Below, in pieces: positions 1,190-26,430 of a stretch of DNA of 64,000 nucleotides. Source of the stretch: an uncultured delta proteobacterium (GTDB lineage Bacteria > Desulfobacterota > Binatia > UBA9968). How positions within the stretch are numbered: position 1 is the first letter of the stretch; every line of letters starts with the position of its first letter. The DNA lies in contig CAVUZH010000020.1 of the NCBI GenBank assembly GCA_963745835.1, positions 64,001 through 128,000 on the forward strand, given 5' to 3'. The notes under the pieces are model-generated. The model was given only the letters and a program-made list of their open reading frames with translations. It was not told where the DNA came from and did no database searches. A program made the position numbers and the translations under genes.

Positions 1190-2243
1190 TAGGGACGCTG
1201 TTGACTAACTGGACAAACTAGAATAGAGAGTGGAGAGAATCGATAAGGGCTACAGCGTATGCCGAGGCAGGCTAGACTGGATAGTCCCGGGACACTGCAC
1301 CATGTAATGATCCGAGGGATTGAAAAGAAGCGGATCGTCCTTGACGAGCAAGACCGAAAAGACTTTGTGCGCCGATTGGGTTTATTGGCCGTGGAAACGA
1401 AGACGGCGATCTATGCATGGGCGTTAATGAGCAACCATGCTCATTTGCTGGTTTGCAGCGGGACTGAGGGATTAGCCAAGTTTATGCGGCGATTTTTGAC
1501 CGGTTACGCGGTGAGTTATAACCTGCGCCATCGCCGGCATGGTCATCTTTTTCAGAACCGTTACAAATCGATGGTGTGCGACGGCGGCAGCTATTTCACC
1601 GAGCTGGTGCGCTACATCCACCTAAACCCGTTAAGAGTGGAGTTGGTAAAGGATTTGAGGCAACTGGAGAGATATCCCTATTGTGGACATGGAACAATCT
1701 TGGGAGCGCAATCAAACGCCTGGCAAGACCGCGACAGCGTGTTGGCCCAGTTTAGCCAACGCGAAGCGGAAGCGAAGGAGGCATACCGGCGCTATATTGC
1801 CGAAGGAGTCGTGCTGGGGCGGCGGCCGGAGCTGGTTGGGGGGAGTGGATCGGTTGGCGAATGGTTTGCGGTGAAATCCCAGCGGCGACGCAGGATTGAA
1901 GAGTCAACTGATGAGCGGATTTTGGGCAGCGGAGCATTTGTAAAGCGTGTTCTAAAAGAAGCAGATGCGCGGACACTCCGGCAAAACGCCTTCAAGAAAA
2001 CCAAACGCTATGCGGAGCGTGTCGTTGCCGCGGCCTGCAAGAAAGACGGCATATCGCTAACAGAACTCCGAAGCGGGAGCCGCCGTGGGAAACTGCCCGC
2101 CGTGAGAGTGAAGATCGTTCAGGGGCTTAGTGGAGGATTATGGCGTGCCCATCGCCGAGGTCGCTCGCCAAGTGGGTATCTCGACATCTGGAGTTTCAAA
2201 GATTCTGACACGAAGTTTGTCCAGCTAGTCAACAGCGTCCCTA
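1190..2243 (+). mobile_element. RAYT-like element with 30-bp terminal inverted repeats
   Basis: 1190-1219 TAGGGACGCTGTTGACTAACTGGACAAACT is the reverse complement of 2214-2243 AGTTTGTCCAGCTAGTCAACAGCGTCCCTA with 1 mismatch; no target duplication seen. Confidence 0.8.
1259..2228 (+). CDS. REP-associated HUH/Y1 transposase (RAYT-like) with C-terminal HTH; frameshift near 2122
   Basis: MPRQAR, HHVMIRG, LMSNHAHLL (HUH), GHLFQNRY and RYIHLNP. The alternative frame gives HTH tail LVEDYGVPIAEVARQVGISTSGVSKILTRSLSS* ending inside the right IR; the ORF track reads to 2266. Confidence 0.88.
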
Positions 2244-2518
2244 GCTGCCGTACTCTTACCCGCTAAATTCACAGGCAAAAACTGGATCTATGCGCTATGC
2301 TTTGGGTCATGGCAGTCATGCGCGAGAGATCCGGCCACCACGAATCAGAACGCTTTTGAACATGGTCTAGCGGGAATCGCGCAACCCCGAGTAAACGGCG
2401 CACTGCCGAACGATTCGTTGCTCCTGAAATGTGAAATTATTGAATCGATTGGAACTGTCCTTTTGAGTGTTCCGACATTGAACCGTTGAACGCTTGAACG
2501 GTTTGAACCGATCGACGC

Positions 2519-2638
2519 GTGTTTGCGTCGGATTTTCCGCACGAAATCGCGATCGAAGACGCACTGCATGAGGTCAATGAAATTCTCGAACGGAAAAATA
2601 GAAACCTAAGCACAAAACCATGATATATCTGACCTACC
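2519..2638 (+). repeat. Amidohydrolase-tail repeat, copy A (short)
   Basis: Encodes VFASDFPHEIAIEDALHEVNEILERKN; nucleotide similarity to copies at 5001, 6152 and 9820. Confidence 0.85.
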
Positions 2639-2800
2639 GTTATGATCGAGAAGCCTCTATGAGCATAGGCCATGGGTTGAAACAATTTTTGCTGGCACTC
2701 CAGCAGAACAAATTACGCAAAACGAGACACGCGCCGACGGTTGAAAACAACGGCCAAGGTTGAGCTGGTTGCCAGTTAGGCGACAAGGAAGGCGATAGTA

Positions 2801-3967: not shown

Positions 3968-3972
3968 TCTCG

Positions 3973-4974
3973 ATGAAAACGGCCAAGGAGTCTTCCATGA
4001 AGTGGTTTCGTCGATTTGCCTACTCTGCGGTCGTAACCTTCACGCTTCTTAGCGCGGGGCACACCGCATGGGCACGCACGGTCAAGGTCGGCATTCCTGG
4101 TCACAACGTTACGCAAGCAGCTTTCTATGTCGCCAAGGAGCGGGGCTGGTATCGGGATGAAGGTTTGGATGTCCAGCTGATCATGATGCCCGCGCCGGTG
4201 AGCAATTTGGCGTTGATCGCAGGCAACGTAGATTTCACTTCCGTTCCCACCGCAGCGATTACGGCTGCGTTGCGCGGCGCTCCGCTCCGGGTGCTCTTCA
4301 CAAGCTTCGATAAACCACTTTTCTGGCTCTACGCCAGGCCGGAGATCCGCGAGCTCAAGGAGCTGAAAGGCAGAAAGATCGGGACCAGCGGACTCGGCGC
4401 GGCGGAAACGCTGTTGCGTGAATTCCTTCAAAAGCACGGTTTTGACGTCAGCCGAGATATCACTTTATTGAACACGGGAGCGGATTCAGTTCGTTATGTT
4501 TCTGTTGTGGCGGGCTCGACCGATGCAACTGTGATTACGTTGCCGTGGAATTTTTCCGCCGAGGATGCAGGCCTGCGCAGTCTGGTTTCCTTTACGAAAG
4601 AGGACATGGTGCAGCTCACGGGAAGCGTGGTCGCCCGTGAAGGCATTCTGCGATCCGAACCCAGCGTGGTGGAAAAATTCATCGCCGCTACCATGCGCGG
4701 GCACTTGGCCCTGCGTGAAGATCGTACCGAAGCGATCGCCACGCTGACTCGCAACGTAAAAATTTCCGATGCTCTCGCCGCTAGAAGCTACGATGTGATT
4801 CGCCCGGCTTTGACGCTCGACGGTGGACTCAATGAAGAGTCTCAGCGGAAGGCTCTCGATCTAATTTTACAAGCGCAAAGCATCAAAGATGCGCCCCCGG
4901 CAGAGCGCTTCTTCGATTTTGCGATTCAAAGACGCGTGAGCGCCGATCTTAAGAAAAAAGGCTGGAAACCGTGA
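3973..4974 (+). CDS. ABC transporter substrate-binding protein (NMT1/SsuA-like)
   Basis: Signal peptide; VAKERGWYRDEGLDV and LKGRKIG. Confidence 0.88.
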   Translation: MKTAKESSMKWFRRFAYSAVVTFTLLSAGHTAWARTVKVGIPGHNVTQAAFYVAKERGWYRDEGLDVQLIMMPAPVSNLALIAGNVDFTSVPTAAITAALRGAPLRVLFTSFDKPLFWLYARPEIRELKELKGRKIGTSGLGAAETLLREFLQKHGFDVSRDITLLNTGADSVRYVSVVAGSTDATVITLPWNFSAEDAGLRSLVSFTKEDMVQLTGSVVAREGILRSEPSVVEKFIAATMRGHLALREDRTEAIATLTRNVKISDALAARSYDVIRPALTLDGGLNEESQRKALDLILQAQSIKDAPPAERFFDFAIQRRVSADLKKKGWKP

Positions 4975-5000
4975 AGATACCAACGGTGCAATCGACCGGC

Positions 5001-5214
5001 TCGCGATGGAAGACGCACTGCATGAGATCAATGAAATTCTCGAACGGAAAGATATTCAATGGTAAGCGCAAAGCCATGATACTCGGTGAAAACGCTAAGG
5101 GATTCTACAAACTCTAATGTGAGATTCCCGTTGCTCTGAAGATGCGAGCAGGGTGATTAAGAAAGCGCTATCACGGCCAAATAATTCTGTTGGTGCAACA
5201 CAAGACCCGACGCC
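5001..5214 (+). repeat. Amidohydrolase-tail + RAYT-end repeat, copy B
   Basis: AMEDALHEINEILERK...AMILGENAKGFYKL* followed by a tail ending CAAGACCCGACGCC. Confidence 0.85.
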
Positions 5215-5349
5215 ATGGCTGTTTCCTCTCACTTTTGACCGTGAAAAGTTAGTAGAGTTGGGCAAGTCTGACACGGGGGCGTTCTCCTTCTCGAGGAGTC
5301 TGTTGGAGAACCGTGAATTGATCTAGCGAGCGGGCACGGCATTCACCGA

Positions 5350-5390
5350 TTGACCGAGGGCGAATGCTGCTGTACAGTTAGATGTACAGC
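5350..5390 (+). promoter_or_regulatory. TA promoter with YefM-type operator
   Basis: TTGACC-17-TACAGT; GCTGTACA-GTTAGA-TGTACAGC has two TGTACA cores 12 bp apart, as in the yefM-yoeB operator. Confidence 0.65.
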
Positions 5391-5398
5391 AAAAGGAG

Positions 5399-5704
5399 GT
5401 GGGTTTGAAGCAATTATCGCTAACCGAAGCGCGCGCCAAATTGAGTAGCCTGGTGGCGGAAGTCGACAAGGGAAATGGGCCCATCGCGATTGCGCAGCGG
5501 TCGAAGGTCAAGGCACTGCTCGTCGATCCCGAATGGCATGGCCGGGTAGAGGAAGAACTCGCCCACTACCGAACTCGCTCGAGGCAATCGCCGTTAAAAC
5601 TGCGGGGCAGCATGACATTGACGGGAGACCTGGACGAAGCTCTCCAGGATCTCAAGAAAGAAAGAGAGCAGTCCCTCCAGGGCGTCATTGCCGCGCTCAA
5701 GTGA
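5399..5704 (+). CDS. Phd/YefM family antitoxin
   Basis: LSLTEARAKLSSLVAEV...PIAIAQRSKVKALLV; GGAGG RBS; overlaps the toxin gene. Confidence 0.85.
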   Translation: MGLKQLSLTEARAKLSSLVAEVDKGNGPIAIAQRSKVKALLVDPEWHGRVEEELAHYRTRSRQSPLKLRGSMTLTGDLDEALQDLKKEREQSLQGVIAALK

Positions 5705-6102
5705 TTTACGTTACCGATATGCACCCGCTGGTTTTCTGGTCATCAAATCGTAGACGGCGGTTGGGAAACCGCGCACGGCGTATCTTGCAAGAGACGGAGC
5801 AGGGCAAACACTCCATCATCGTGCCGATTGTCGTTCTGGAAGAAATCAACCGGCTGGTGGAAAGAAAAATCGTTCGCTTGGAGGTTCCGTTTCGTCGCTG
5901 GGCCGAAGAGCTTGAACGCTCGCCCAACTTTCAAGTCCAGGCTTATACGTTGGAAGTTTTGCTGCAATCGGTCTCGCTCGCGGCAATCCGCGACCCGGCG
6001 GATAGAGCCATCGTCGCAACAGCCCGCCAGCTCCGCTGCCCGCTCATCACCGCCGATGACCTTATTCGAGACGGTGAGTGGGTCGATACGGTTTGGGACT
6101 GA
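5701..6102 (+). CDS. VapC/PIN family toxin
   Basis: GTG start at 5701; YVTDMH, VVLEEI, RDPADRAIVATA, LITAD. Confidence 0.88.
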   Translation: MIYVTDMHPLVFWSSNRRRRLGNRARRILQETEQGKHSIIVPIVVLEEINRLVERKIVRLEVPFRRWAEELERSPNFQVQAYTLEVLLQSVSLAAIRDPADRAIVATARQLRCPLITADDLIRDGEWVDTVWD

Positions 6103-6151
6103 CCGCCGCGAGATTATTCTCTTGCATCGATAGAACGGTCCGGAGAGGTCC

Positions 6152-6393
6152 GTGTTTGGGTCCGAGTTCCCGCACGAAACGCGATGGAGACGCATTGCAT
6201 GAGATCAATGAAATTCTCGAACGAAAAAATGTCAAGGATAGGCACAAAGCCATGATACTCAGAGACAACGCCAAGAGATTCTACAACCTCTAGTGTGAGA
6301 TCCTCCCTGTTGCACTGAATATGCGAGCGGAGCGAGTAAGAAACTATTGGGAGGCGTCAAAAGTTCTGTTGTCGTAATGCAAGACCTCACCCT
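6152..6393 (+). repeat. Amidohydrolase-tail + RAYT-end repeat, copy C
   Basis: VFGSEFPHE..DALHEINEILERKNVKDRHKAMILRDNAKRFYNL* followed by a tail ending TAATGCAAGACCTCACCC. Confidence 0.85.
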
Positions 6394-6543
6394 GCGGCTT
6401 GCCCGGCCGCGTGCTGGTAATGCTGCAACAGTTCGCCGGCGTCGCCTATCGCGGTAGTAGTCTCGCGTCTAATCGGGTTCACAATCGTGCATCGGGATCC
6501 CAAGGACCGAGCTTGAGCACCCGGGTCATGCACGGGGCTGAGA

Positions 6544-6908
6544 GAACCCTTAGTCTTTTTCCATCGACCGTTTCCTTGGTAGAAGGATCGTGGCTCAAGC
6601 CCTACGCGCAGTCAGTTAGACTGTCGAGCTTCACGTCGAGCACTTTGCTCCGGACGCTAAAGACGAAGTTTGGCTGACTGAAGTCGGGAGCCGTGGTTGC
6701 AGATCGTATCCGCTACAGAGTCACTGAACGAACGGCGCTCGCATCCGGGAGAGTCAGGGCTTTTGTGCTGACTTCAAGCCAACTGCTAGGGGCCGAAATG
6801 GCTACTGGCTTTGTAAAAGCACTTCCACGGATGAAGCGGCTTATCGCCAACCACACTCCTCCATTCATTGGCCGGGTTTCAAGAAATGGGAAAGTCTCAC
6901 TGTTGTGA
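6544..6908 (+). pseudogene. VapC45-type PIN-like toxin, decayed
   Basis: EPLVFF/IDRFLGRRIVAQALR..*..EHFAPDAKDEVWLTEVGSRG/DRIRYR..RAFVLTS; internal stop and frameshifts. Confidence 0.7.
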
Positions 6909-7031
6909 GCCGTCGCCGAAATCGTCAAGAGGAATACGCTCGTATAAGCACCCGCTGGGACATAAGCGAGAATTTCATACTGCGAGATTGACTTGCCATC
7001 GGTAAGTTTCTCCCCTCTTCGTGCGAATGCC

Positions 7032-7086
7032 TTGACCATAGCCGGCCGGTACAGTACTTTAAGTAGACCAGAATTTTGGTCTACTT
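7032..7086 (+). promoter_or_regulatory. TA promoter with palindromic operator
   Basis: TTGACC-17-TACTTT; perfect 10-bp inverted repeat AAGTAGACCA-N6-TGGTCTACTT at 7061-7086. Confidence 0.6.
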
Positions 7087-7099
7087 GGAGGATGCGAGC

Positions 7100-8132: not shown

Positions 8133-8144
8133 ATCACCGATATC

Positions 8145-9272
8145 TCAGGCGACTTTGTATTCCTTAATCGCATCCTCGTTTAACTCTAGACCGAGTCCAG
8201 GCTTTTCGGTGAGAGTGATCCAACCGTTCACCGGTTCCGGCACCTCCTTGTAGACGACGTTCCAGGTAAGCCAATTGGTGATGTGAACTTCGGCGCGCCA
8301 GCCATTGGGCACCGCGGCGTGCAAATGGACGTCGAAATGGTGACCGTTGCCGATGGGCAGGTTGAAGGCATGGGCCAGGGCGGCGGCTTTCATGCCCATG
8401 GTGAAACCGCCCACCACGAGCACATGGAAATTCAGGAAGTCTACCGAATCTTGCTTCACCAACTCGGCAAGCTTTGAAAGATTATCGTATTGACCGGCGG
8501 CAATCGGAATACTCGTCTGCTTGCGCAGCTGGGCCAGCAGATGTGGATCGTTATACACAATCGGCTCTTCGAACCACATCAGGTTATAGGGCTCGAGGCG
8601 CTTGCACCAGCGCACGGCGGCTTCGAGTTTCATTAGACAGTTGGCGTCTACCATCAACTCCGCCTTGTCGCCGACAGCCTCGCGCACCGCTCTAACTCTT
8701 GCTTCGTCTTCCGCTGGGTCGTCTTCGCGATGCTCGCCGCTGGCACCGGAGGGATCAGTGGCGCCGCGGATGTTCGATCGGCCGACCTGGATTTTGAGGC
8801 GTGTTTCGCCGCGGCCTGCCCAATATCTTGCCGCTTCCACCAATTCCTCGCGGCTGTAGGCGCGCAAACCGAAAGTAATGTAAGCCGGAACTGATTTCTG
8901 TGCGCCGCCGAGAAGACGCCAGACCGGCACTTTGTAAAACTTTCCCTTGATGTCCCAGAGCGCCACGTCGATGGCACTTACCGCGAAGTTCCAGACCCCG
9001 GCATGGGCGCGATTGTTGAATTTCCACAGCATCTGATGCATCAAGCGCTCGTGTTCCAGAGGCGTCTGGCCTTTCAAGAAGGGGACAAGGTCTTTGAGAA
9101 TGAAAGCCGCGGTGGCGGAATACATGGGGCCGGCGATCTGCGATAGGCCAATGATACCGTCATCAGTCGTGATTTTTAGTATGCGCGCTCCGGTTCGCAC
9201 GGGCTGTTTGAAGAGCGGCGGTGTAACTTGGATATTTTGCAGCTCGATAATTTCGATTTCGGCAATCTTCAA
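8145..9272 (-). CDS. Mandelate racemase/muconate lactonizing enzyme family protein
   Basis: SAIDVALWDIKGK, LMVDAN, WFEEP, IPIAAG, KPGLGLE; probable TTG start after GGAGA. Confidence 0.9.
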   Translation of the reverse strand: MKIAEIEIIELQNIQVTPPLFKQPVRTGARILKITTDDGIIGLSQIAGPMYSATAAFILKDLVPFLKGQTPLEHERLMHQMLWKFNNRAHAGVWNFAVSAIDVALWDIKGKFYKVPVWRLLGGAQKSVPAYITFGLRAYSREELVEAARYWAGRGETRLKIQVGRSNIRGATDPSGASGEHREDDPAEDEARVRAVREAVGDKAELMVDANCLMKLEAAVRWCKRLEPYNLMWFEEPIVYNDPHLLAQLRKQTSIPIAAGQYDNLSKLAELVKQDSVDFLNFHVLVVGGFTMGMKAAALAHAFNLPIGNGHHFDVHLHAAVPNGWRAEVHITNWLTWNVVYKEVPEPVNGWITLTEKPGLGLELNEDAIKEYKVA

Positions 9273-9417
9273 GATTAGTCTCCTTCGGTCTTTGGGGGCT
9301 ACCATCGGAATTAACAGGTAGCGCGACGAGTAAGCAACAGGTATAAACGATCTTGATTAAAAGAGGAAAGCAGAGGATCAGGTATTAGAGATTTGACCCC
9401 ATCACCGCATTGCCATC

Positions 9418-9782
9418 ACGCCTTCACGCGTTTCTTCCTGGAAATGTGCATCGACCAGGTGAGATTTATGGGAGGGCTCGTGCAACCGGATCGTTTGGGT
9501 ATCCGCATCCGCATTTGGGCCGAGGAAGAGATTCGACTCGGCCATCTTCCTGCGAAATCAGGAAATATTCTCGAAGCCGTGCTCTATCGCGGTGAGCTGC
9601 CGCGCGGTGAAATGGCGGCAATAGTCGGCACGGGAGACCGCCAAGCGCGCCGGATCATCTCAGCTCTGGTTGACAAGGGTGTATTGCAATCCGAAAGCGC
9701 GCGCGCGCCGCTGCGCCTCGCATTTCCAGCTGCGCTCGCGTCGCGCTGGATGCCGGGACTTTTCCCTGAAAGAATCGAATAA
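9418..9782 (+). pseudogene. Fic family protein, C-terminal fragment
   Basis: FTRFFLEMCIDQVRFM...LYRGELPRGE...RQARRIISALVDKGVL..PLRLAFP..WMPGLFP; no Fic motif or proper start; begins just after ATTTGACCCC. Confidence 0.7.
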
Positions 9783-9819
9783 GACTGGATAACGCCTTCC
9801 CTCGGTTTGCCGCTGCTGC

Positions 9820-10012
9820 GCACGAAATCGCGATGGAAGACGCATTGATTGAGATCGATAAAATTCTCGAACGAAAAGATTTCAACGATAAGCACGAAGC
9901 CATGATACTCGGGTAAAAGCGAAGAGATTCTACAAAGAAGCCAGCGGAGTGATTAAGAAAGCGTTGTCAGGAGGTCAAATAATTCTGATGTCGCAACGCG
10001 TCACCTGACCCC
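9820..10012 (+). repeat. Amidohydrolase-tail + RAYT-end repeat, copy D
   Basis: HEIAMEDALIEIDKILERKDFNDKHEAMILG; the tail reads SGVIKKALSGGQIILMSQRVT* ending ACCTGACCCC. Confidence 0.85.
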
Positions 10013-10213
10013 ATGTCTGCCTCGTCGACAGCGCAGGGCATTTATTTGCTCGGCTCCGGTGCATGGGGCGTCAAAGATATCCTTGCGGCGGAAAACGATC
10101 TGGGTGTTCCCGTGGTTAATCCGGTTGCCGCCCGGGTTTGGTGCGTGCAAAAGCTTTTGAGAGTCAGGAATTTGTTAAAGGGAGCGAGCCGATTACTGGA
10201 GGAATTACCTTAG
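10013..10213 (+). pseudogene. Arylmalonate decarboxylase/maleate isomerase-like C-terminal fragment
   Basis: AQGIYLLGSGAW...ENDLGVPVVNPVAARVW...RLLEELP; begins immediately after TGACCCC. Confidence 0.6.
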
Positions 10214-10352
10214 AGAGCCTTGCAGTACCCGACCGAGCAGGAAACCGTGATCAGTCCGGTGAACAAACGACATGGCTGGTCAGTCAATAGAGCACAACAG
10301 CCGCATTCAACTCTTAGGGGCCTCACCATAACGGATACTGCTTGTTAGCCGA

Positions 10353-10377
10353 ATGTTGCAGTACAAGACCTGGCCCC
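10353..10377 (+). repeat. Isolated RAYT-type end motif
   Basis: ATGTTGCAGTACAAGACCTGGCCCC, matching the ends of repeats B-D. Confidence 0.6.
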
Positions 10378-10560
10378 GCGTGACCTCTCCTAACCCCCGC
10401 TTTCACTGACACCCGACGCCTCTTTGGAACTGAGCGCCAATTCTATCGCAAAGCGGCGCTGCGCGAGGCGGTCACTGCAAAAAGCGTTTCACACACATGC
10501 TAAGTCATAGTACAAAGTATCCATATTATACTATTATTACTACACTGGGGAGGATAAACG

Positions 10561-11172: not shown

Positions 11173-11332
11173 AACTGGGGTAAGAGGCTTTTATATCAGC
11201 CCGGAGAGGGAGGTGCGGGTCGGACCAAGGCAAGTTCTTGATTTAGCGATGTAAGATAGCATAAAAGGCATCGGCTAAGCGCTTAGAAGGCCATTTTTGT
11301 GGCCGAAAGATAGCGCCTAAAGGGAACTTCCG

Positions 11333-12133
11333 ATGCCCCGAGCAAACCGCCACTTTCTTCCCGGTCATGTCTGGCATATAACCCACCGCTGTCATCAAAA
11401 GCAGTTCCTATTAAAGTTTCCCCGCGATCGTCGTTGTTATGTGTATTGGGTCTTTGAAGCCAAGAAGCGATTTGGTCTTTGCGTACTGAATTACATCGTG
11501 ACTTCTAACCACGTTCATCTTTTAGTGAAAGACACAGGTGGAAACGTTATCGCAGCCGAGCATGCAGTTCATCGCCGGTCGAACCGCGCAGGAGTACAAT
11601 CAGCGAAAGGACGCCACGGTGCATTCTGGGAAGACCATTATCATGCCACAGCCATCCAAGCTGACGAGCACCTGCATCGCTGTCTGGTCTAATCGACCTG
11701 AATATGGTTCGCGCAGGGGTAGTGAGCCATCCATGAAATGGGTGCACAGCGGTTACCGAGAGATTCAGAGACCTCCCAAGCGATACGCGATCATCGACCT
11801 CCGGGAATTAACGGGATTGTGCGGCTTTGCCGATTCGGGAGATTTTCAATTAGCGCATCGCCAGTGGGTGGAACAGACGCTTGAGCGCGGGCGCACAGTG
11901 CGTGAGGACCGCTGGTCGGAGGCCATTGCGGTCGGCAGTTTGGCATTTGTTGAGAGCGTCAAAAGTGAGCTAGCGGCAGAGCGATACATCGCGCAGTTGA
12001 GGAGAAAGACGGAGCCTATGCGTTGCGTGAACGGAGTGAGGCTTACAACGGAGATTTCGGCGGTGAAAGTGAGCCGCTAACGCTAGAAAACACGGTCTTA
12101 TGGAACGAAAACGCTGCAGCGGCAGAGACATAA
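11333..12133 (+). pseudogene. RAYT-like HUH/Y1 transposase with multiple frameshifts
   Basis: MPRANR, WHITHRC, TSNHVHLL, FWEDHYHAT, IDLNMVRAG and WVHSGY are spread over several frames. Confidence 0.85.
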
Positions 12134-12363
12134 TTTTTCTCATCGCTGCGTCGCTAGGTACCCTTACCTACCCTTAATTAAATCCTCGCCACATGGCATG
12201 AGCTGCTTGGTATCTCCGAATCGCACGATTGTTGGGAGAATAGCCTATAGTTATCGTCGTGCGAACGATCCTCGCTGAAGAGTATGACAACCCGCGAAGA
12301 TTGACCCAGGTTGAATAACCTGCTCCACAAGACATGTAGAAGCCGTCGCTTACGCTTTGTCCA

Positions 12364-12661
12364 CTAACGCCGGGTGGCCATGATATAGAAGCCCCAACGA
12401 CGAAAAAATCGACTTTGACATGCAGGCATCCATTTCTGCGCAGCTGAACCCATGAATTGGTGGTATAACTCCGCTCTTATGGTATCAATACGCCAACGCT
12501 GATCGCCCTGGTACAATTGACCCGTCCCTGCGCCCAAACATTTCCCCATCAGAGGATACAAAATTAAACGCGTCTTGTTCTTGGTATCGGTAATTCTGAG
12601 CTAAAAGCTGCTCGCTGTTCAGCATCACCCCTACTAACACCAGCACTCGCAGTAAAATCAT
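12364..12661 (-). pseudogene. Small secreted hypothetical protein, probable frameshift near 12563
   Basis: Signal-peptide-like MILLRVLVLVGVML joins LYPLMGKC...RWGFYIMATRR if one T is removed from a run. Confidence 0.4.
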
Positions 12662-12684: not shown

Positions 12685-13317
12685 TCAGCGCCCGTAAGGT
12701 TTAGGTGGAGCGTTAGGTGGAGGAGTAGGTTGAGGACGGGCGTTCGTGTTTTGATCGCGGTGCGTTCCTTTGTCACCATGCGGGGTGCCGTCATATCTAC
12801 CGCAGTCCTGGCCACGCTGAGGTTGACAGTCGGGCGTTATGAACGCGCCTCCGCTACTAGGTGGTATGCCAGGAACGCCTTTATAACCCGGTAGGTTCGG
12901 ATTCCCGCCTTCGACGCCAGGCAAGCCCGGCATGTTAAAGACCGCTCCCCCCCCCTGCTGCCCCTGCTGCTGATTCGCGGCTTGCATTTCCGCAAGAAGT
13001 TGCTTCCCTTGGGGGTGAGTAGCCATCGGGTGCCACCCTTGTTGGGTCAAAATATATAGGACTCCGCCGCGGTCGGCCACCCAGAAGCCGGTTTTCTGAT
13101 CTTGCATAGCCTGCCAAGGCACGTGGTAGTACCAGCTCCGTCCACTGCCGGTGCTGTAGCAGCCGACAAGCTGGTTTGTGCCTTGTTGATATATGCACTC
13201 GCCTTTCCTGTATTGCTGTGGCGTCCGTTGCTGTGGTTGGGCATCAGCACTCTCAGTCAGCGCGATGGCGAAAACAATCGCGAGACAGGCGACAACTACC
13301 CGGACTAATTTTTTCAT
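12685..13317 (-). CDS. Secreted hypothetical protein with Gln/Gly/Pro-rich C-terminus
   Basis: AAGGAG RBS, clear signal peptide, two Cys pairs, low-complexity tail. Confidence 0.7.
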   Translation of the reverse strand: MKKLVRVVVACLAIVFAIALTESADAQPQQRTPQQYRKGECIYQQGTNQLVGCYSTGSGRSWYYHVPWQAMQDQKTGFWVADRGGVLYILTQQGWHPMATHPQGKQLLAEMQAANQQQGQQGGGAVFNMPGLPGVEGGNPNLPGYKGVPGIPPSSGGAFITPDCQPQRGQDCGRYDGTPHGDKGTHRDQNTNARPQPTPPPNAPPKPYGR

Positions 13318-18101: not shown

Positions 18102-18312
18102 CATCTGCCATGGACCACGCTCACTGCGGCGAGTTTTTGAATCAGCTTTTTTCTGAGTGCTTCTCTGCCGCCATCAGGCTCAGGTCTGTGGCGGGGCAGA
18201 TTTCTCTCGCGTTGATGAAACCAACTTTCTTGAAGGTCGACAAATGCTCTTCGACCGTCATGAAATGGGCGGCTCGATGACCGGAAGGCGACGAAGATTG
18301 ACGTCCAGCCAG

Positions 18313-18600
18313 TTCCAGGGTCAGGTCTATCATCGCTGCACAAACACATGCGCCGGTTAACCATGCTCGCTTCCGAATCCCAATCTCAAACTCGATGATG
18401 CCGCGACCGCTGGTAATGCTGGCGCAGCAGATCTCTGCCGTAATCGTTGCCGTTGGGCGTCCGCACGATGACGTGAATATGATCTTTGTAATGCTCTTTG
18501 TATTGGGGAAAGGCCTGGCCGGCTTGATGATCGAACTCGACCAACAACACCGGGCTATGGATGCGGTAATAGAAAACGCTGTCTTCTTCCACGCCGCCGA
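18313..18600 (-). repeat. 288-bp direct repeat, copy 2 (DUF3500 3' end + end motif)
   Basis: Matches 20878-21165 with 2 mismatches seen; on the minus strand it ends AGACCTGACCCTGGAA. Confidence 0.95.
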
Positions 18601-18719
18601 CCTTGCTTATGGTTCGAAGCGGTCTGTCGGCCGCCGCGTCAGGCGAAAAATTTAATGTCCTGGACTTTACCGTGCTGTCTGAGAGAAAGTGCGAAAGTAA
18701 AGCCGAGGAGGGTAGATCG

Positions 18720-19724
18720 ATGAGATTCGTCTTTCGCCCAATGACGATCCTGACGGCGGTGGTGCTGTTGGGGACAGTGTCCAGTGATCTGTTTTCCCAG
18801 ACGAAGGCATTGAAGGAACTCAATACCTCGTACCCTCTCGGCGGCTCGAGCAGTTTTTTTTGGGTTGCCTATCGTTCAGGTTCCTTCGAAAGACAGGGTT
18901 TGAGACTTAAACCGATCTTCATCCCGGGAGGTGTCACCGCGCTCCAGTCTCTGCTGGCGAAGGAAGTATCGATTCAGTTGACCGCCGGTCCCGCCGCCAT
19001 TCGCGCCTGGGCTAGAGGCGCCAGAGAGGTCACCTTTATTGGAGCAGTCGGTAACCGGCTCGATTACATTATCGTTGCCCATCCCTCGGTGCGTAACGTC
19101 AATGATTTGAAAGGTAAGCGAATCGGCGTGAGTCAACTCGGCGCCAGCCCCGATTTCATCGCCCGGATGGGACTGCGGCGCTTGGGGCTGAATCCGGAAA
19201 AGGACGTTACCATCGTGCCGATTGGCTCGCCCGGAGAACGGTGGTCGGCACTGACAGCCGGTCATGTCCAGGCCTCGCTCTTCCAGGCGCCGTTCACCCT
19301 GCGGGCCCGCAAAGCCGGGTATGTGTCCCTGCTAGATTTTGCCACGCAAGATTTTGAGTACATCCTCTCCGGCGTTCTGACCACGCGCTCCTTCATTAAC
19401 TCGGACAGAGACACGGTAATGAATTTCATGCGTGGGTTGGCGGACGGGATGGACTTTTATCGCGACGAGAGAAATCGCGAGAAGACAATGAGCTATCTTC
19501 GTGAATATTATCGATCCAACGCCAACGAAGAGCTGGAAGAGACGATCAACATGTACAGCCGGGTCACTCCCGGCCTTCCGGCGGTGACAGCGAAGTCCAT
19601 CGAAAACGTCATCGTCAGCGACGGCGATCTTTCCGGCATGGGCCTCAAAGCGGCCGATATGCTCGATCTGTCATTCTTGCAGAAGCTTGCGGAAGAAAGA
19701 AAAGCCAAAGGCAAAGAGTCCTAA
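18720..19724 (+). CDS. ABC transporter substrate-binding protein (NMT1/SsuA-like)
   Basis: Signal peptide, DLKGKRIGVSQLG, GLNPEKDVTIV; GAGGAG RBS before ATG 18720. Confidence 0.88.
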   Translation: MRFVFRPMTILTAVVLLGTVSSDLFSQTKALKELNTSYPLGGSSSFFWVAYRSGSFERQGLRLKPIFIPGGVTALQSLLAKEVSIQLTAGPAAIRAWARGAREVTFIGAVGNRLDYIIVAHPSVRNVNDLKGKRIGVSQLGASPDFIARMGLRRLGLNPEKDVTIVPIGSPGERWSALTAGHVQASLFQAPFTLRARKAGYVSLLDFATQDFEYILSGVLTTRSFINSDRDTVMNFMRGLADGMDFYRDERNREKTMSYLREYYRSNANEELEETINMYSRVTPGLPAVTAKSIENVIVSDGDLSGMGLKAADMLDLSFLQKLAEERKAKGKES

Positions 19725-19789
19725 AGTAGCCAGGCCGCTGAAGCCGTCCATTCGAGAAGAGACATCGGTGGCCTCGACCCGTGAGCCGC

Positions 19790-20929
19790 TCACTGGGCTT
19801 TCTTCAGTCGATCGAACTGGGACTTGAACTTTTCACAAGGGTCTTCGTCGTCGATCCGTGGCGTGAACCAAACGTAATCAAAAGGCAATCGGCCATCGGA
19901 GTACGGCAGCGCGTAACTCTGCGGCGTGGTCTTCTGTTTATCGACTTCGACGAAAGATATGCTGATCACCCGCTTGTCCGGCGCCTTTGCTCTGATGTAA
20001 ACGGGTATGCCGTAATCGTCGCGGACATGACCGGCTCCGGCTACCAGGATCGCACCGCCGGGATCTCCCGCTGCAATCAAGCTCTGCGCCATCTGAGCGT
20101 CCCTGGCCCGCTGTACATCAACCATCGGTTTCAGGCTTTTCTCCGGTGCATAGCCGCAATGAGCGTCGCGTATATCAGCCGCCATGCTAGCGAACACAGG
20201 TTCGGGCGGCGGCCTGTCGAGACCCAATTCGCGCATCACCCGCGGATCGAGAGCGGCCAAGCCATCCCTGCTCATCTTCCTCGCAGTCGCAAGCGGCAAA
20301 TTCGTCGCGACGATTCTTAACTTTGCTTGAAGCGCGGCCTCGGCGATCGGCTGATACATCGCCCAATCCGGCCATCCACGTTGGTTCCAATTCACTGCCC
20401 TGCCAAGCCCGGCAGCATCGTTCGGAGCGGCGGCGAGATGTCCGGCGATAATGCTGGCGTCGTCAAGGCCGAGCATTTCAAATGCCACTGCGGGATGTCG
20501 TCCAACGGCGATCAGGCTCCGAAGCACTTCGGCCTGCAGCATGTGATGGTCGGGGTTGTCATGCCGCTCGCCGAGAAGGACGAAATCAGCGCGAGCCAAA
20601 CGCTCGACCAGAGTCTCGCGATCGATGAATCGGTCGGAGGAGACGTCCCAAATACGTCCGGCGAGAGGATGATTTCGACCTAGTGGTGATTTCCACGAGG
20701 TGGCCGAGCATCCTGCCAGGACACACGCTACGTAGCCCACGAGCAGTGCAAGTAAAGTCGTCGCGTGATGTCTTACTTGAAACCCAGCGGGCGATATCCC
20801 TCGTGCATCTGCAAGTGAAAAGTCGATTCCTTCACGGAATAACCGCGCCGTCTGTTGATTTTCAGCAGCAGTAAAATTTCCAGGGTCAGGTCTATCATCG
20901 CAGCGCAAACACATGCGCCGGTTAACCAT
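19790..20929 (-). CDS. ChaN (heme-uptake, Tiki-like) family lipoprotein; true start probably near 20780
   Basis: LAGC lipobox, VLLGERHDNPDHH, VAFEM, QRARDAQMA, AGAGHVR. Confidence 0.85.
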   Translation of the reverse strand: MVNRRMCLRCDDRPDPGNFTAAENQQTARLFREGIDFSLADARGISPAGFQVRHHATTLLALLVGYVACVLAGCSATSWKSPLGRNHPLAGRIWDVSSDRFIDRETLVERLARADFVLLGERHDNPDHHMLQAEVLRSLIAVGRHPAVAFEMLGLDDASIIAGHLAAAPNDAAGLGRAVNWNQRGWPDWAMYQPIAEAALQAKLRIVATNLPLATARKMSRDGLAALDPRVMRELGLDRPPPEPVFASMAADIRDAHCGYAPEKSLKPMVDVQRARDAQMAQSLIAAGDPGGAILVAGAGHVRDDYGIPVYIRAKAPDKRVISISFVEVDKQKTTPQSYALPYSDGRLPFDYVWFTPRIDDEDPCEKFKSQFDRLKKAQ

Positions 20930-21165
20930 GCTCGCTTCCGAATCCCAATCTCAAACTCGATGATGCCGCGACCGCTGGTAATGCTGGCGCAGCAGATCTC
21001 TGCCGTAATCGTTGCCGTTGGGCGTCCGCACGATGACGTGAATATGATCTTTGTAATGCTCTTTGTATTGGGGAAAGGCCTGGCCGGCTTGATGATCGAA
21101 CTCGACCAACAACACCGGGCTATGGATGCGGTAATAGAAAACGCTGTCTTCTTCCACGCCGCCGA
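20878..21165 (-). repeat. 288-bp direct repeat, copy 1 (within and after the intact DUF3500 gene)
   Basis: Matches 18313-18600 with 2 mismatches seen. Confidence 0.95.
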
Positions 21166-22138
21166 TCCAGGCAAAATAAGTGTCTTTGAAGTGCGAATGG
21201 GTTTCGGCCAATTTGATCGCCGCGTGACCGGGCCGCAGTTTGCCGACGTGAATCTCGACCAGCTGCGCCAGCAAATCATGCTGGGCGCCGTTTAACTGGT
21301 CATAGCGGATGCCTTGATACCCGAGTTCCAGGTTATCGCGGAAAGCCGTGGTGAATAGGTCCTTGGGCAGGCTCGCGCCGATCACCGCTTTGCCGCGCTG
21401 TTCGCCGGTCAGGCTGCGCATTAGCGCGAGGCCGCGCGCTTCTTCGGCCTGAAAGACCCGTGTGCCGGCGTATTTGCCGCTCAAGGCATGCACGGGCTCG
21501 GAGCCGAGAAATGCCGGCGTCATGGTTACCTGATCGCCGAGCACAAAAAAGTTGACGTTCAAATGATGACCGTCGATCTGCCAGCCCCAGGGCTCTTTTT
21601 CGGAGGGTGTGCCCATGATGCTGAGCCAATACAGATCCTCGCCGAACTCGTCGAGCTTGCCGGTCATTTCCATGACGGTCTCGTTAAGTCGCATGATGTC
21701 CCGCGCAGTTTGAAATCCTTGGGCGCTGAGGCTTTCTTGGAGCAGAGCCAACGCGTGATCGATCTGGCGGTCGGTCATGGCAAACAACGGCATACCATGG
21801 CGCATGATCGTGCGGTGGATATTGCTCCACAAGCGCCATTCGGGCGCGTCGACGGGGAAGAGCGTGTGGCGGCGCTGCTCGGCATCGAGCGAGGCGAGAA
21901 ACGCTTCAGCGGCTTCGCGGATGGGCTCCGTCGAAACTCCGGTCTTCTGAATGGGAAATAGTCCCTGAAGCGGCGCGCCGTCGGTAGTAACGCCTTTCCA
22001 GTTTTCGCCGAGCGCCTTGGCGGCGTTGTCGGCATAGTTCGGCGGACCGCCGCCGATGCGCAACGGCCGGCCGTTGCGCCGCGCCGCGGCGATGGCCGCA
22101 GGTTGATTGGTCGGTTTGGCTTCGCTGATGCTCATCAC
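20951..22138 (-). CDS. DUF3500 domain protein
   Basis: WGWQIDGHHL, TPAFLGSEP, YYRIHSPVLLVEFD, HIHVIVRTPNGNDYG. Confidence 0.88.
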   Translation of the reverse strand: MMSISEAKPTNQPAAIAAARRNGRPLRIGGGPPNYADNAAKALGENWKGVTTDGAPLQGLFPIQKTGVSTEPIREAAEAFLASLDAEQRRHTLFPVDAPEWRLWSNIHRTIMRHGMPLFAMTDRQIDHALALLQESLSAQGFQTARDIMRLNETVMEMTGKLDEFGEDLYWLSIMGTPSEKEPWGWQIDGHHLNVNFFVLGDQVTMTPAFLGSEPVHALSGKYAGTRVFQAEEARGLALMRSLTGEQRGKAVIGASLPKDLFTTAFRDNLELGYQGIRYDQLNGAQHDLLAQLVEIHVGKLRPGHAAIKLAETHSHFKDTYFAWIGGVEEDSVFYYRIHSPVLLVEFDHQAGQAFPQYKEHYKDHIHVIVRTPNGNDYGRDLLRQHYQRSRHHRV

Positions 22139-22303
22139 GGTTCTCCTGATCTGATAACAGTAAAATTACGCGCTCGCCTTTACCCATGTCAAACCGCGCC
22201 GGCGGATTTTCGCATTGACTGGTTTCGGCTCCGGTGTTACCTAAGCTTGACCGCGCGGGCCACGGCGGTCCGAACGGCTGTTCGGTCTGGCGGATTTTCG
22301 GCT

Positions 22304-23299: not shown

Positions 23300-23786
23300 A
23301 CGGGAAGCTGTCAGGAGTGAAGGGTAAATAGTAAGGACTCAACCCGGGTCAAATTTGTGTCCGTCTCCTGGACCTAATTCCGTTCACTCGTCACATTTTG
23401 CTCCTGACTCTTCACTGTTCCGATGGGTTCGCAGCAGATCCCATCGAAGTTTATCCTCAAGCACTCCGGCTTGAATCCCGACAAAGACGTGATCGATCGC
23501 GTCCATCGATACCATAATCGCAGCGGTGCAGTCTCGGGCTACATTGACAGCTCCCGGATATATTAAGTGAGGCGTTTTGGTGGATGTCACCTTTGCTCCA
23601 ATAAGCGCCTAACGAGCATTGCGGTAGAAATTAAACGTGCAACACCGCTGGGCTCGTTTCTTTTGACACCGATCCAGAGACGGCGAAATCTCCGATGCGA
23701 CAGCATCGCTACTAAGTCGTTTGCCAGTCTCGTTCCGTCCATATATGAGCTAGAGATCATTTCGTTGACAAAAGCGAGGAGTCCCC

Positions 23787-25508
23787 ATGGAATCCAACAA
23801 GACCGTAACTCTACCCGTCGAGACCGTCGGCCAGGCTTATTTAGAAGTCCTGCGCGCGCGGGGGATAAAATATTTTTTCGGCAACAGCGGAACTGACTTC
23901 GGCCCGATCATCGATGCGTTGGCCAAGCTGGCGGCGGATAAGAAAGAATTTCCAAGGCCGATCACGGTTGCCCACGAGTTCGTCGCGGTGAGCATGGCGC
24001 AGGGCTATGCAATGATCACCGGTGAGCCGCAGGTCGTCATGGTTCACGTGATCGTCGGCACGGGAAACGCTTCGGCGGCGGTGATGAATGCGTCGCGGCT
24101 GAATGTGCCGATGATTTTTTCCGCGGGACGGACACCGCTCACCGAAGAGGGGCTGACCGGCAGCCGGAGCAATTTCATCCACTGGGGCCAGGAATCCTTC
24201 GATCAGGGCAGTTTGCTGCGCGAGTTCACCCGCTGGGATTACGAGCTGCGCAACGGTCAGCAAGTGGAGACAGTGGTCGATCGCGCGCTAGAAATGACGC
24301 TGGGCACGCCGCAAGGGCCGGTGTACTTGACCTTGCCCCGCGAAGTCCTGGCGCAGAAGATGGACTCGATTACAATCCATCCGTATCGGAAAAACAGAGA
24401 AGAGCCTTTGCAGCCGAGTGCGGAATCGATCAGGCGTACCGCGGAAATCCTCCGCAGGGCGACCAATCCGTTGATCATCACCGGCCGGCTGGGTTCAGAT
24501 CCGACGGCGGTCAGCGCAATGGTTTCCTTTGCGGAAGCGTTGGTTGCGCCCGTGGTCGCGCCGGCAAGTCCGTTCGTGAGCATGCCCAACACGCACGACT
24601 ATCACCTTGGCGTGAGCTCAGCCCCTTACATCAAAGATGCGGATGTCGTGGTGGTCGTCGAAAGCGATGTGCCCTGGTATCCAGCTCAGGGAAAGCCGCC
24701 GGAAACTGCCAAGGTCATTCAGATCGCGCGCGATCCGAACTACAGCGGCGTGCCGATCCGCAGCTTTCCGAAAGATATTTCCATCGGCGGCGATCCCAAG
24801 CTCTCGCTCCAATTGCTGGCTGAAGAATTACGAAAAGGACCACGCGATGAGAAGGCTCTTTCGGAGCGCGCCGAGCACATCCGCGCTAGGCATAAGAAAT
24901 ATCGTGAGGACGTGAAGCAAAAAGCGGAGAAGGCGAGCGGCTACCGGCCGATCAGTCACGCTTGGCTGGCGTGTTGCGTCGATCAGGTGCGCGATCGCGA
25001 CACGGTTGTGTTGAGCGATCATGGCATCGGCAACGAAGTGCTCAACTTGAGCGAACCGGAAACTTATTTCGGCGGCTCGCCCGCGGGAGGATTGGGTTGG
25101 GGCATCGGCGGCGGTTTGGGCATGAAGCTCGCGCGTCCGGAAAAAACTTTCATCGTCACCGTCGGTGACGGGACCTACATGTTCAACAATCCGACCGCCT
25201 GCCATCTGGTGTCGCAATCTTACGGTCTGCCGATGCTGACGATCATCTGTAACAACGCGATCTGGCATGCCAGCAAAGCGGCGACACAGCAGGTGATGCC
25301 GGACGGGTGGGCGGTCAGCACGGGCAATTTCCCGTTGTGCGATCTCACACCGTCACCGCGCTACGAAAAGATCGTCGAAGCGCACGACGGTTACGGCGAA
25401 ATGGTCGAAGATCCTCAGCAACTGCTATCGGCGCTGCAGCGGGCGCTCAAAGTTGTCAAAGAGGAAAAACGCCAGGCGGTGCTGAACGTGATTTGCGGCA
25501 GTCACTGA
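23787..25508 (+). CDS. Thiamine pyrophosphate-dependent enzyme (acetolactate synthase-like family)
   Basis: HE..AVSMAQGYA, GPVYLTLP, GGLGWG, GDG...CNN TPP motif. Confidence 0.9.
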   Translation: MESNKTVTLPVETVGQAYLEVLRARGIKYFFGNSGTDFGPIIDALAKLAADKKEFPRPITVAHEFVAVSMAQGYAMITGEPQVVMVHVIVGTGNASAAVMNASRLNVPMIFSAGRTPLTEEGLTGSRSNFIHWGQESFDQGSLLREFTRWDYELRNGQQVETVVDRALEMTLGTPQGPVYLTLPREVLAQKMDSITIHPYRKNREEPLQPSAESIRRTAEILRRATNPLIITGRLGSDPTAVSAMVSFAEALVAPVVAPASPFVSMPNTHDYHLGVSSAPYIKDADVVVVVESDVPWYPAQGKPPETAKVIQIARDPNYSGVPIRSFPKDISIGGDPKLSLQLLAEELRKGPRDEKALSERAEHIRARHKKYREDVKQKAEKASGYRPISHAWLACCVDQVRDRDTVVLSDHGIGNEVLNLSEPETYFGGSPAGGLGWGIGGGLGMKLARPEKTFIVTVGDGTYMFNNPTACHLVSQSYGLPMLTIICNNAIWHASKAATQQVMPDGWAVSTGNFPLCDLTPSPRYEKIVEAHDGYGEMVEDPQQLLSALQRALKVVKEEKRQAVLNVICGSH

Positions 25509-25683
25509 GGCGGCGGGTTTCTTCCTGGGTCGCCCGTTGAAAGGATCCGGCGCTACGCGTCAAGGTTGCGCCAGTGCGGAGATCGATGTCCTTACCCCGC
25601 AGCACCGATCATTCGCTCCTGGCGAACGGATCTTTGATCGACGCCCCGCTTGTCGCGGTGTGCCCGTGCCGGCGCTCCGATAA

Positions 25684-26265
25684 TCAGCGAGCTAACGACG
25701 TACTTGGCTTGCCTCTTTGCAGCACCGACCCGACGATTGCCCCGCCGACCGCCGCGCTCAGGATTGTCCTCCATGGCCGGGGACGTTGCACGAGTTCGAA
25801 CTCGACGCTTCGAATATGATCATCCTTCTTGAGCATGACAGACGCGCTCTGTGGCTCGATGCTGCGAGAGCCAATTAATACAACCGCAACCGGATTGGCC
25901 CGGCTCCATATGCCTCTTAGAGTCGGCGTGATTCGATACTGCCCGTCGGGAAAAGCATTCAGATGGATGCCTTGCCCCCAGATTTGAAAACTAAGCTGGT
26001 GGTAATCGCCTTCATCCGGTAAGTCCCAACAAGAAACAGAATCAACCACATCTTTCCAGATGCCGGTGCCGGGAATCGGCTCGTACTTTCCACCGCCGAC
26101 AGCGCGGAACTGAGTTGCCGTATGCTCTTCCACGCGAATGTTGAAACCGCTGCACAGATCGCCCAGAGGTCTACCGATGTATTTCTTCCAACGGATGGTG
26201 CCAAAGATCGTCGGTGGTAATGCCACGAGATCGTCGATCGAAACTGTGTCAAACGCTTGCATCAT
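25684..26265 (-). CDS. Hypothetical protein
   Basis: 193-aa ORF with GGAGAG RBS and a C-terminal hydrophobic segment; no family recognised. Confidence 0.55.
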   Translation of the reverse strand: MMQAFDTVSIDDLVALPPTIFGTIRWKKYIGRPLGDLCSGFNIRVEEHTATQFRAVGGGKYEPIPGTGIWKDVVDSVSCWDLPDEGDYHQLSFQIWGQGIHLNAFPDGQYRITPTLRGIWSRANPVAVVLIGSRSIEPQSASVMLKKDDHIRSVEFELVQRPRPWRTILSAAVGGAIVGSVLQRGKPSTSLAR

Positions 26266-26430
26266 CTTCTCTCCCCATGCGGACTAGAATATTCACGTCT
26301 TCTTCAAACAGTGGCAGTAGTAGGGTCGATCTCTATCTTTGACATTGCTCCAGGTGTTTGACTCAGACTTTGACTTCTCGGCGCGGGTCAGGATTTCAAA
26401 ATACCTGTTCCTTGTCCCGTCGTAAGTCGC

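Follow-up and report, generated by a model that had tools for sequence, protein, structure and literature searches.

Solo terminal repeats of TIRYT-type elements as putative rearrangement boundaries in a plastic chromosomal region of an uncultured bacterium

The DNA analysed here, which we call the window, is a stretch of 64,000 nucleotides (nt) from the genome of an uncultured bacterium (G000; 7.28 Mb in 25 contigs, 54% G+C), namely positions 64001–128000 of contig C20; DNA nearly identical to it occurs in metagenome runs from soil and rhizosphere. Where positions in the window (w) stand beside those of other contigs they carry the prefix w. Its first 27 kb hold chiefly ordinary transport and metabolic genes on both strands (minus-strand examples are 8145–9305, 12685–13317 and 19790–20929), among them a BPD_transp_2 permease, Amidohydro_2 genes with NMT1 binding proteins, an MR_MLE enolase-superfamily enzyme, GST, ChaN, DUF3500 and TPP enzyme genes, and two toxin-antitoxin pairs, one with PIN and one Phd/ParE. 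The same 27 kb contain three genes for Y1-type HUH transposases, repeated copies of a short motif (AAGAYYTGACCC) that marks the tips of such elements and also occurs alone behind other genes (hereafter a solo end), and a number of duplicated or truncated gene 3' tails. The original prediction for this DNA saw in these features an integron-like array that had grown by sequential addition of cassettes. We find that the tip of the solo ends is a preferred boundary of rearrangement: the gene tail and 3' untranslated region (UTR) on the inner side stay attached to it, in several copies with varied 5' cut-offs, and, as alignments with related genomes show, DNA on the outer side has been deleted or replaced from 3–13 nt beyond it.

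RAYT-like genes (RAYT, tyrosine transposase associated with REPs, which are repetitive extragenic palindromes) that are flanked by terminal inverted repeats (TIRs) are called TIRYTs, and the units that they form with these repeats TIRtrons, in the part of Di Nocera, De Gregorio & Rocco 2013 (PMC3733652) that was available. The window contains three elements of this general kind.

1190–2243, plus strand: y1a TIRtron, a 1054-bp element resembling an insertion sequence, with the Y1 gene 1259–2266 and 30-bp inverted repeats at 1190–1219 and 2214–2243 (97% complementary)
11183–12396, plus strand: y1c, a broken third RAYT-like element with frameshifts and stops; boundaries tentative
13493–14540, plus strand: y1b TIRtron, an intact TIRYT gene (13545–14537) inside perfect 15-bp inverted repeats at 13493–13507 and 14526–14540, the gene's stop codon lying inside the right repeat

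A Y1_Tnp domain is found in all three of the genes that had been predicted to be RAYT-like, and 13545–14537 alone is intact. Its protein matches Y1_Tnp (Pfam, E 8.9e-14) and, at residues 238–299, Bac_DnaA_C (E 1.5e-8); residues 237–316 match the DnaA domain IV structure 1j1v (E 1.7e-4), the HUH motif reads HFH and the tyrosine motif YVHVNP. One search returned 6558 homologues at E <= 0.001, with source names that include 'REP-associated tyrosine transposase' and 'putative transposase'; some, at 57–58% identity, are named Candidatus Binatia, a label that gives no firm indication for G000 itself. The 1259–2266 protein of y1a is also a Y1_Tnp protein (E 2.3e-8) with an HUH (HAH) and a YIHLNP motif, and this copy of the gene is probably frameshifted near 2127, since its +1 frame (w2120–2245) runs to ..VEDYGVPIAEVARQVGISTSGVSKILTRSLSS*, a helix-turn-helix (HTH)-like end with its stop inside the right inverted repeat (recognised in the +1 frame only and without Pfam scoring), and since our read-level evidence, Logan short contigs from four sequencing runs placed on the window, has one base fewer at 2127 or 2129 in contigs of all four. 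Element y1a is multicopy, with 98% copies at C13:630821-631885 and C5:164086-165134, fragments besides and conserved ends; its inverted repeat differs from the motif. The y1c gene (11333–12100) gives, in its reading frame 11333–11692, a weak Y1_Tnp match (E 1.4e-3), its candidate inverted repeats at 11183 and 12396 match at 13 of 16 positions, and its relatives are 72–77% identical. Against the NCBIfam model REP_Tyr_transpos the three proteins of the window score 66.5, 56.2 and, for y1c, 39.6 bits, all below the cut-off of 80; the score for transpos_IS200 is 16.4 against a cut-off of 55. No target-site duplication was seen at y1a or y1b.

Y1_Tnp is the sole transposase domain among the 30 open reading frames (ORFs) scanned with Pfam; these include no IS91-type Y2 transposase, oriIS and terIS not having been searched for. 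The absence of a tyrosine integrase, part of the original prediction, also holds on the whole contig, where none of the genome's 13 Phage_integrase (PF00589) matches lies. Rfam gives no match at E <= 0.1 over w1–30000.

By domain content and flanking repeats, the Y1 elements of the window belong to the described TIRYT/TIRtron class: they show a Y1 HUH domain with HUH and tyrosine motifs, a C-terminal HTH and flanking terminal inverted repeats. In Quentin et al. 2018 (PMC6006769), so far as that paper was accessible, TIRYTs form subclass 2.1 and have a C-terminal extension like Bac_DnaA_C or HTH_23/28; the accessible text of PMC3733652 adds that the majority of TIRYT repeats start GGGGWSAS and that solo, dimeric and clustered copies of the repeats are 'moderately abundant'. 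A related TIRtron on contig C2 of G000 begins with GGGGTCAG, which fits this consensus. The left repeat of y1b begins with GGGGTCAA (7 of 8 positions) and the right one with CGGGTCAA, and the repeats of the y1a copies begin with GGGGACGC or AGGGACGC.

Two observations concern the surroundings of these elements. A 20-nt tandem repeat (AGAGACTGCCATCATCGGCC, about 3.7 copies) occupies w13381–13454, 38 nt outside the left inverted repeat of y1b. On G004:C66 (L015 1–1735), beside the orthologue of w1–985, a 5'-truncated TIRYT gene comes after the permease gene, and the DNA behind it is 96% identical to G000:C2:19973-20600, which flanks the C2 TIRtron; the position behind the permease thus holds TIRYT remnants in both genomes.

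The motif had been proposed as an end site of Y1/HUH elements, and the perfect 15-bp inverted repeat around the intact gene bears this out. On the other strand it reads GGGTCARRTCTT, which is the tip of the TIRYT terminal inverted repeat, and the solo ends have about 26 nt in common with the C2 element's repeat (..TGTnGCAnnnCAAGACCTGACCC). The solo ends lie roughly 35–110 nt downstream of host genes, with the gene on the inner side. In the window the motif is far above chance: exact matches number 2 against 0.01 expected; allowing one mismatch brings the count to 7 (0.77 expected) and allowing two to 28 (12.65 expected), and none of 100 shuffles reached 7 or 28, respectively. The whole genome (7.3 Mb) has 17 exact sites, clustered at C20:48–85 kb, C2:6–20 kb, C13:560–690 kb, C3:240 kb, C10 and C22. 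A count over 21 genomes of the order gives 156 exact sites, the reversed control reaching 17; when the unpublished genome G012 is set aside, the two figures become 140 and 16. Many of the exact sites form (−,+) pairs 886–1050 nt apart, that is, whole elements.

The sites of interest in the window are these.

Exact: 13493 (minus), 14529 (plus)
One mismatch: 6381, 9388 and 10365 (plus), 18318 and 20883 (minus)
Two mismatches: 5202 (plus), 23346 and 26385 (minus)
Three mismatches: about 10005 (plus)
Insertion or deletion variant: about 12300 (plus)
9375–9399: two end-like sequences abutting in inverted orientation (GGATCAGGTATT / GAGATTTGACCC), sites 9375 (minus) and 9388 (plus)
23346–23357, minus strand: weak end-like site with two mismatches; status uncertain
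26385–26396, minus strand: weak end-like site with two mismatches, 35 nt behind the stop of the same-strand NMT1 gene 26431–27438

A variant of the motif is thus present at each of the 12 places predicted, and for the weaker ones the motif alone cannot separate them from chance. Those at 5202 and 10005 are backed by homology to other tail copies; the one at 12300, which had been counted as an end, is probably interior to the broken y1c element. A further motif-like site at 18177–18188 (two mismatches) lies in coding sequence, in a methyltransferase gene tail, and was treated as chance. On the inner side of the weak site at 23346, G005:C5 lacks the 372 nt w23394–23765, joining 23393 to 23766. 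A separate and far more abundant family, resembling miniature inverted-repeat transposable elements, has a member at w37954–38084. This repeat, about 125 nt long and bounded by inverted ends (CAGACCGTTCAAAG .. TTTCAACGGTCTG), immediately precedes a ribosome-binding site and start codon; the genome self-comparison gives up to 29 partners at this place, and five relatives contain more than 100 matches.

Several of the solo ends close a duplicated or truncated gene tail, as follows.

2249–2625, plus strand: copy of a composite unit, a leader with TTGAAC 8-mers and an amidohydrolase 3' tail (2518–2625), cut off before the end motif
5001–5228, plus strand: tail pseudogene fragment with UTR and a degenerate solo end (5202–5213)
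5294–6395, plus strand: toxin-antitoxin block with PIN gene 5533–6102 (Pfam), tail 6151–6392 and solo end 6381–6392
9819–10026, plus strand: tail, UTR and solo end (about 10005–10016), after the small gene 9393–9782
10026–10384, plus strand: 5'-truncated Amdase/racemase-like tail with UTR and solo end (10365–10376)
18130–18304, minus strand: methyltransferase 3' tail with its 5' part missing, joined 13 nt outside the end at 18318
18313–18600, minus strand: DUF3500 tail, intergenic DNA and solo end 18318–18329; recent 99% copy of 20878–21165
20878–21165, minus strand: parent copy behind the intact DUF3500 gene 20951–22138; solo end 20883–20894

Duplicated 3' tails ending at the motif had been reported in the original prediction, and the amidohydrolase family and the 99% repeat are clear cases. 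Each amidohydrolase tail consists of the last 30–45 codons of a gene and about 100 nt of 3' UTR; there are four in the window (2518–2625, cut short, 5001–5228, 6151–6392 and 9819–10026) and one 16 kb to the left. The same tail series occurs in G001:C46, G004:C552, G004:C496 and G005:C140, with about 100 codons kept in some. In all nine copies that have a complete 3' side, from four genomes, homology stops right after ..AAGACCTGAC, and the 5' ends differ at five or more points. No intact parent was found at the nucleotide level. The tail peptide matches the C-termini of intact 364–388-aa genes (tblastn), one of them an Amidohydro_2 gene (E 2.3e-27), and the window's own Amidohydro_2 at E 4e-4 (BLASTP); Pfam assigns the 91-aa translated tail fragment to no family at E <= 0.001. 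The tail at 5001 begins 26 nt past the stop of the NMT1 gene 3973–4974. The 5294–6395 block has a 91% copy at G005:C140:2033-3134, adjoining an intact SDR gene, and in the window a 48-nt vestige of the SDR gene's 5' end remains at 5292–5339. The unit at 2249–2625 is 78–90% identical to C20:48018-48289, its leader being non-coding. A single contiguous array of tails was considered and rejected: the C20:48181 copy is about 16 kb apart and the intervening DNA is colinear with G004:C66. Runs of an 8-nt unit (TTGAACNN) lie at w2478–2499, 45127–45156 and 46321–46342 (8 matches against 1.36 expected), and similar 8-nt runs immediately precede amidohydrolase tails and a cassette start in G001:C46.

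Four other families of gene tails, Amdase-like, DUF3500, C13 and C18, share this shape. The Amdase-like fragment at 10026–10384 is joined about 6–10 nt past the preceding end; other copies of the gene are intact (C21, C2, G004:C496, G005:C140 and G007:C4, with an Amdase Pfam match on L013:15-704), and in the four copies that have the UTR homology ends at most 8 nt past the motif, G007:C4 diverging right after the stop codon. The DUF3500 repeat, 18313–18600 against 20878–21165, is 288 bp long and its homology stops 5 nt outside the tip; G005 has no counterpart of 18313–18600, and its orthologue of the 20883–20894 site is at L010:9764-9774. The C13 family has four copies with the same tail pattern, and the C18 fragment adjoins its intact parent gene.

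Comparison with relatives resolves several of the junctions, two of which involve the truncated genes beside the motif that had already been pointed out, the Amdase-like fragment and the methyltransferase tail. On G005:C140, w6395 is joined to w10148, 11 nt past the tip and inside the Amdase-like fragment; since that fragment is contiguous in G000, G005 has lost w6396–10147, starting at the tip. In G000 the Amdase-like gene is itself cut at w10026, the tip of the preceding tail being at 10016. The methyltransferase gene is intact on G005:C337 (L010:5759-6433, Methyltransf Pfam). The 288-bp repeat has a period of 2565 bp and its inner join, 18600/18601, is away from any motif, so that its simplest history would be a tandem duplication of 18601–21165 and then a deletion that starts 5 nt outside the tip and runs into the methyltransferase gene. 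On G004:C496 the genes for MmgE/PrpD and a solute-binding protein form a block that begins 12 nt past the tip located behind the Amdase-like gene. On G001:C46 this block (98.4% over 2925 nt) has another left-hand context: before it come an amidohydrolase tail, then a fragment of one more gene tail (HAD-like, judged by eye only) that has a TT-type end of its own, and about 160 nt. At the junctions there is a 4-nt CGAC overlap at 10022–10026 and an extra TGACCC 8–11 nt outside the tip at three loci; no convincing common short sequence was seen at the 5' cut-offs or outer junctions.

Genome-wide counts agree with these cases. A repeat ends between −3 and +25 nt of 9 of the 27 exact 11-mer sites, against 0 of 38 for four control motifs; when up to one mismatch is allowed, this holds for 19 of 329 motif sites and 19 of 1472 control sites. 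Among 18 merged breakpoints between the window and related genomes, 3 lie within 20 nt of a tip where 0.22 are expected (P about 0.001). These two comparisons, a motif scan of the genome and an alignment to relatives, were the checks proposed for the original prediction, and both come out partly in its favour.

Other observations weigh against the motif as the general cause of what is seen here. Fifteen of the 18 merged breakpoints are away from it, and the test itself is biased, since the relatives' contigs were hand-picked from matches (one of the 18 is the window edge). About one third of the exact 11-mer sites lie inside long open frames and are thus probably chance matches. The boundaries are not base-precise, falling at +3, +5, +6–10, +12 and +13 nt beyond the tip. 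Most of the tail events are old, to judge from the tail copies, which are 77–89% alike with a star-like tree, those in orthologous blocks being just 80–88% alike. The amidohydrolase tails follow other genes' stop codons with no end in between, and outer-side deletion therefore fails to explain their left edges. The solo ends have no conserved hairpin (single-sequence z −2.16 to +1.22; alifold −7.88 over the last 95 alignment columns of nine tail copies). The repeat of y1b, the window's sole intact Y1 gene, is the TT variant of the motif, most solo ends are the CC variant, and the cognate element of the CC variant is on another contig (C2:18694-19590). No circle junction, which had been suggested as a sign of capture, appears in the short contigs of the four runs, and the joints that these contigs do show mostly reflect paralogous tail copies: 2300>2446, 2500>9822 and 5339>2278 represent the paralogous locus at C20:48 kb, and 6318>9943 and 5158>9958, with short sides of 44 and 23 letters, link two tails at homologous positions and may derive from other copies or strains.

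In a sister family (G017 and G013) the motif has a further association. An IS1182-like DDE element (DUF772 and DDE_Tnp_1_6; 487 aa, copies 99.9% alike; L031, G017:C7:1413000-1432999, and L033 and L034, G013:C1) abuts the motif with either of its ends, the motif varying between CC and TT types, and the element's own 16-nt inverted repeat is followed by AAGAYYTGACCCC at whichever end faces the motif. This suggests that the element inserts target-specifically next to TIRYT-type ends, and these sites thus also attract another mobile element. It has no homologue in G000. G013 also contains a 134-nt repeat ending at the motif.

We consider it somewhat probable that the region is a plastic part of the chromosome of a soil bacterium, colonised by TIRYT elements and acted on by TIRYT protein cutting in trans at solo ends, which would make it a rearrangement hot spot and not an ordered capture array. 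[quoted passage not shown] The ends might on the other hand be passive bystanders, REP-like 3' UTR passengers without an enzymatic role in a gene graveyard built by tandem duplication, illegitimate or homologous recombination and decay of paralogous amidohydrolase/NMT1 operons; boundaries would then coincide with the motif because it closes whole units of gene plus UTR or because replication stalls at short repeats. Such an account, which we think unlikely, fits the 2565-bp tandem duplication, which would explain the 288-bp repeat with its join off the motif, the 15 breakpoints found elsewhere, the old, star-like tails, the contig joints 6318>9943 and 5158>9958, which suggest tail-to-tail joining at homologous positions, and the many paralogous Amidohydro_2 genes that have this same C-terminus. 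It does not account for the loss of homology at the tip in all nine tails and four more families, for deletions that begin 3–13 nt outside the tip in different genomes, or for repeats that end at 9 of 27 exact sites and at none of the 38 control sites.

The sequential, integron- or ISCR-like addition of cassettes at RAYT end sites, each event copying the upstream tail, was the core of the original prediction, and it now seems improbable. It would account for the units of tail plus end stacked head to tail (9819–10026, then 10026–10384, and similarly in G001), for copies with a common 3' end and variable 5' ends, for blocks shuffled between species (the left neighbours of the PIN block differ between G000 and G005) and for the toxin-antitoxin genes in the cargo. 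Yet the cargo lies on both strands and includes multi-gene blocks, there is neither an ordered array nor a common insertion point, most tails are not preceded by an end, and the tail events are old. Deletion from the tip into the next gene explains the stacking at least as well, because G005 has a second, different cut in the same Amdase-like fragment. The best-resolved events are outer-side deletions or replacements and one ordinary tandem duplication, the sole recent addition found, whose join is off the motif. Repeated integration of tyrosine-integrase islands into an amidohydrolase 3' end, each bringing a replacement tail as happens at tRNA genes, would also place direct repeats of one gene's 3' end, here 71–89% identical, between unrelated cargo; we hold it to be very improbable, as none of the 13 Phage_integrase matches is on the contig, an opposite-strand SDR gene instead of an intact amidohydrolase gene stands at the upstream end of the series, the 5' cut-offs vary and the pattern recurs in tails from four other gene families. 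A degenerate classical integron, that is, an attC cluster that has lost its integrase, is scarcely credible: it would leave small cassettes, toxin-antitoxin genes among them, with a repeated element after the ORFs, but there is no integrase on the contig, the cargo is on both strands, the repeat is made up of a gene tail and a transposon end and has no conserved imperfect hairpin, and Rfam, a search that did not include an attC covariance model, yields no match to an RNA or structure family. An assembly artefact or strain chimera of the metagenome-assembled genome has an equally slight chance. The contamination estimate for G000 is 9.33%, and an identical Amdase-like gene end with its flanks is present at both C2:6126-6476 and C21:2147-2497, which, given that estimate, may represent a single locus assembled twice or in strain variants. 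Contigs from runs of different studies, however, bridge 4974/5001, 5228, 6392, 10026 and 18600 with 0–8 differences, one from run X8 spanning the junctions of the 5001–5228 tail and one from run X1 spanning 9825–10207 without differences; and the same tail series and blocks recur in four other genomes. Mis-assembly, which would have undone the original prediction as well, is for this reason unlikely at the key junctions. Outside the region of the tails, a 6.7-kb segment at w30053–36757 is replaced by about 190 nt in G004:C599 and G001:C519, with no end motif near either breakpoint.

To our knowledge, TIRYTs have no known function or mechanism. They form a very large family, and if their solo ends anchor deletions and one-ended copies, this would give them a role in genome plasticity; a Y1 enzyme would be added to the few HUH systems that mobilise host DNA, and an end with 20 nt of flank would offer a concrete biochemical substrate. 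A bolder version, in which TIRYT action in trans a few bases outside the tip is the bacterial counterpart of Helitron- or ISCR-type capture, with tails and blocks copied between ends, outer DNA deleted and cassette-like mosaics built without an integrase, we regard as speculative and rather unlikely. If the ends are mere passengers, the region is an ordinary decaying island of local interest only. We see here a known class of element in a role as rearrangement anchor that is new, plausible and as yet unproven.

REPs are known targets of some insertion sequences and are known as join points of duplications. The window's elements resemble the RAYT/REP/REPIN systems (REPtrons) in their related Y1 enzyme, the inverted short-repeat flanks and the solo occurrence of the same repeat behind genes; they differ in having no hairpin palindromes, tens of copies rather than hundreds, proteins below the REP_Tyr_transpos cut-off and, in y1a, an element that is multicopy like an insertion sequence. 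The Y1 enzymes of the IS200/IS605 family cleave a few bases away from the sequence they recognise, and with such enzymes (IS608, ISDra2) the present ones share the Y1 HUH catalytic domain; cleavage at some nucleotides from the recognised end would fit the +3 to +13 boundaries. IS200/IS605 elements, however, have subterminal hairpins, no inverted repeats and transposases of about 150 aa without an HTH, whereas inverted repeats are present here. With integrons and attC clusters without integrase the region has in common unrelated small blocks, toxin-antitoxin genes included, with a related repeat after each. An integron-like model is nevertheless weak, because there is no integrase on the contig, no conserved attC-like structure was seen in the repeat, there is no single insertion point and blocks are found on both strands. 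One-ended movement by HUH enzymes offers the closest analogy for copies that share a 3' end and vary at the 5' end: in IS91/ISCR and in Helitron end bypass (Helraiser; available text of PMC4778049) flanking host DNA is moved from one fixed end and gene fragments share one terminus. Those enzymes are Y2 or Rep-helicase proteins and the DNA they capture travels with the transposase gene, whereas the units here carry no transposase, their fixed end is a solo repeat and capture is only putative.

The nearest relatives remain the TIRYTs and TIRtrons themselves, and the architecture, which had been thought undescribed, is in its gene class and flanking repeats, with solo, dimeric and clustered copies, already on record in the accessible parts of PMC3733652 and PMC6006769. 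The likeness extends to a Y1 HUH protein of about 330 aa, a C-terminal HTH of the Bac_DnaA_C type, terminal inverted repeats starting GGGG/GGGTCA.., and solo, dimeric and clustered repeats without REP hairpins. The published accounts, in the text available, tie no solo ends to tail duplications, deletions or synteny breaks, and our literature search met with no account of gene-tail duplication or end-anchored deletion at TIRYT ends, related observations possibly being held in supplementary TIR lists. In the genome described here the family is small, with its 17 exact sites in 7.3 Mb, and it is concentrated in a few plastic regions.

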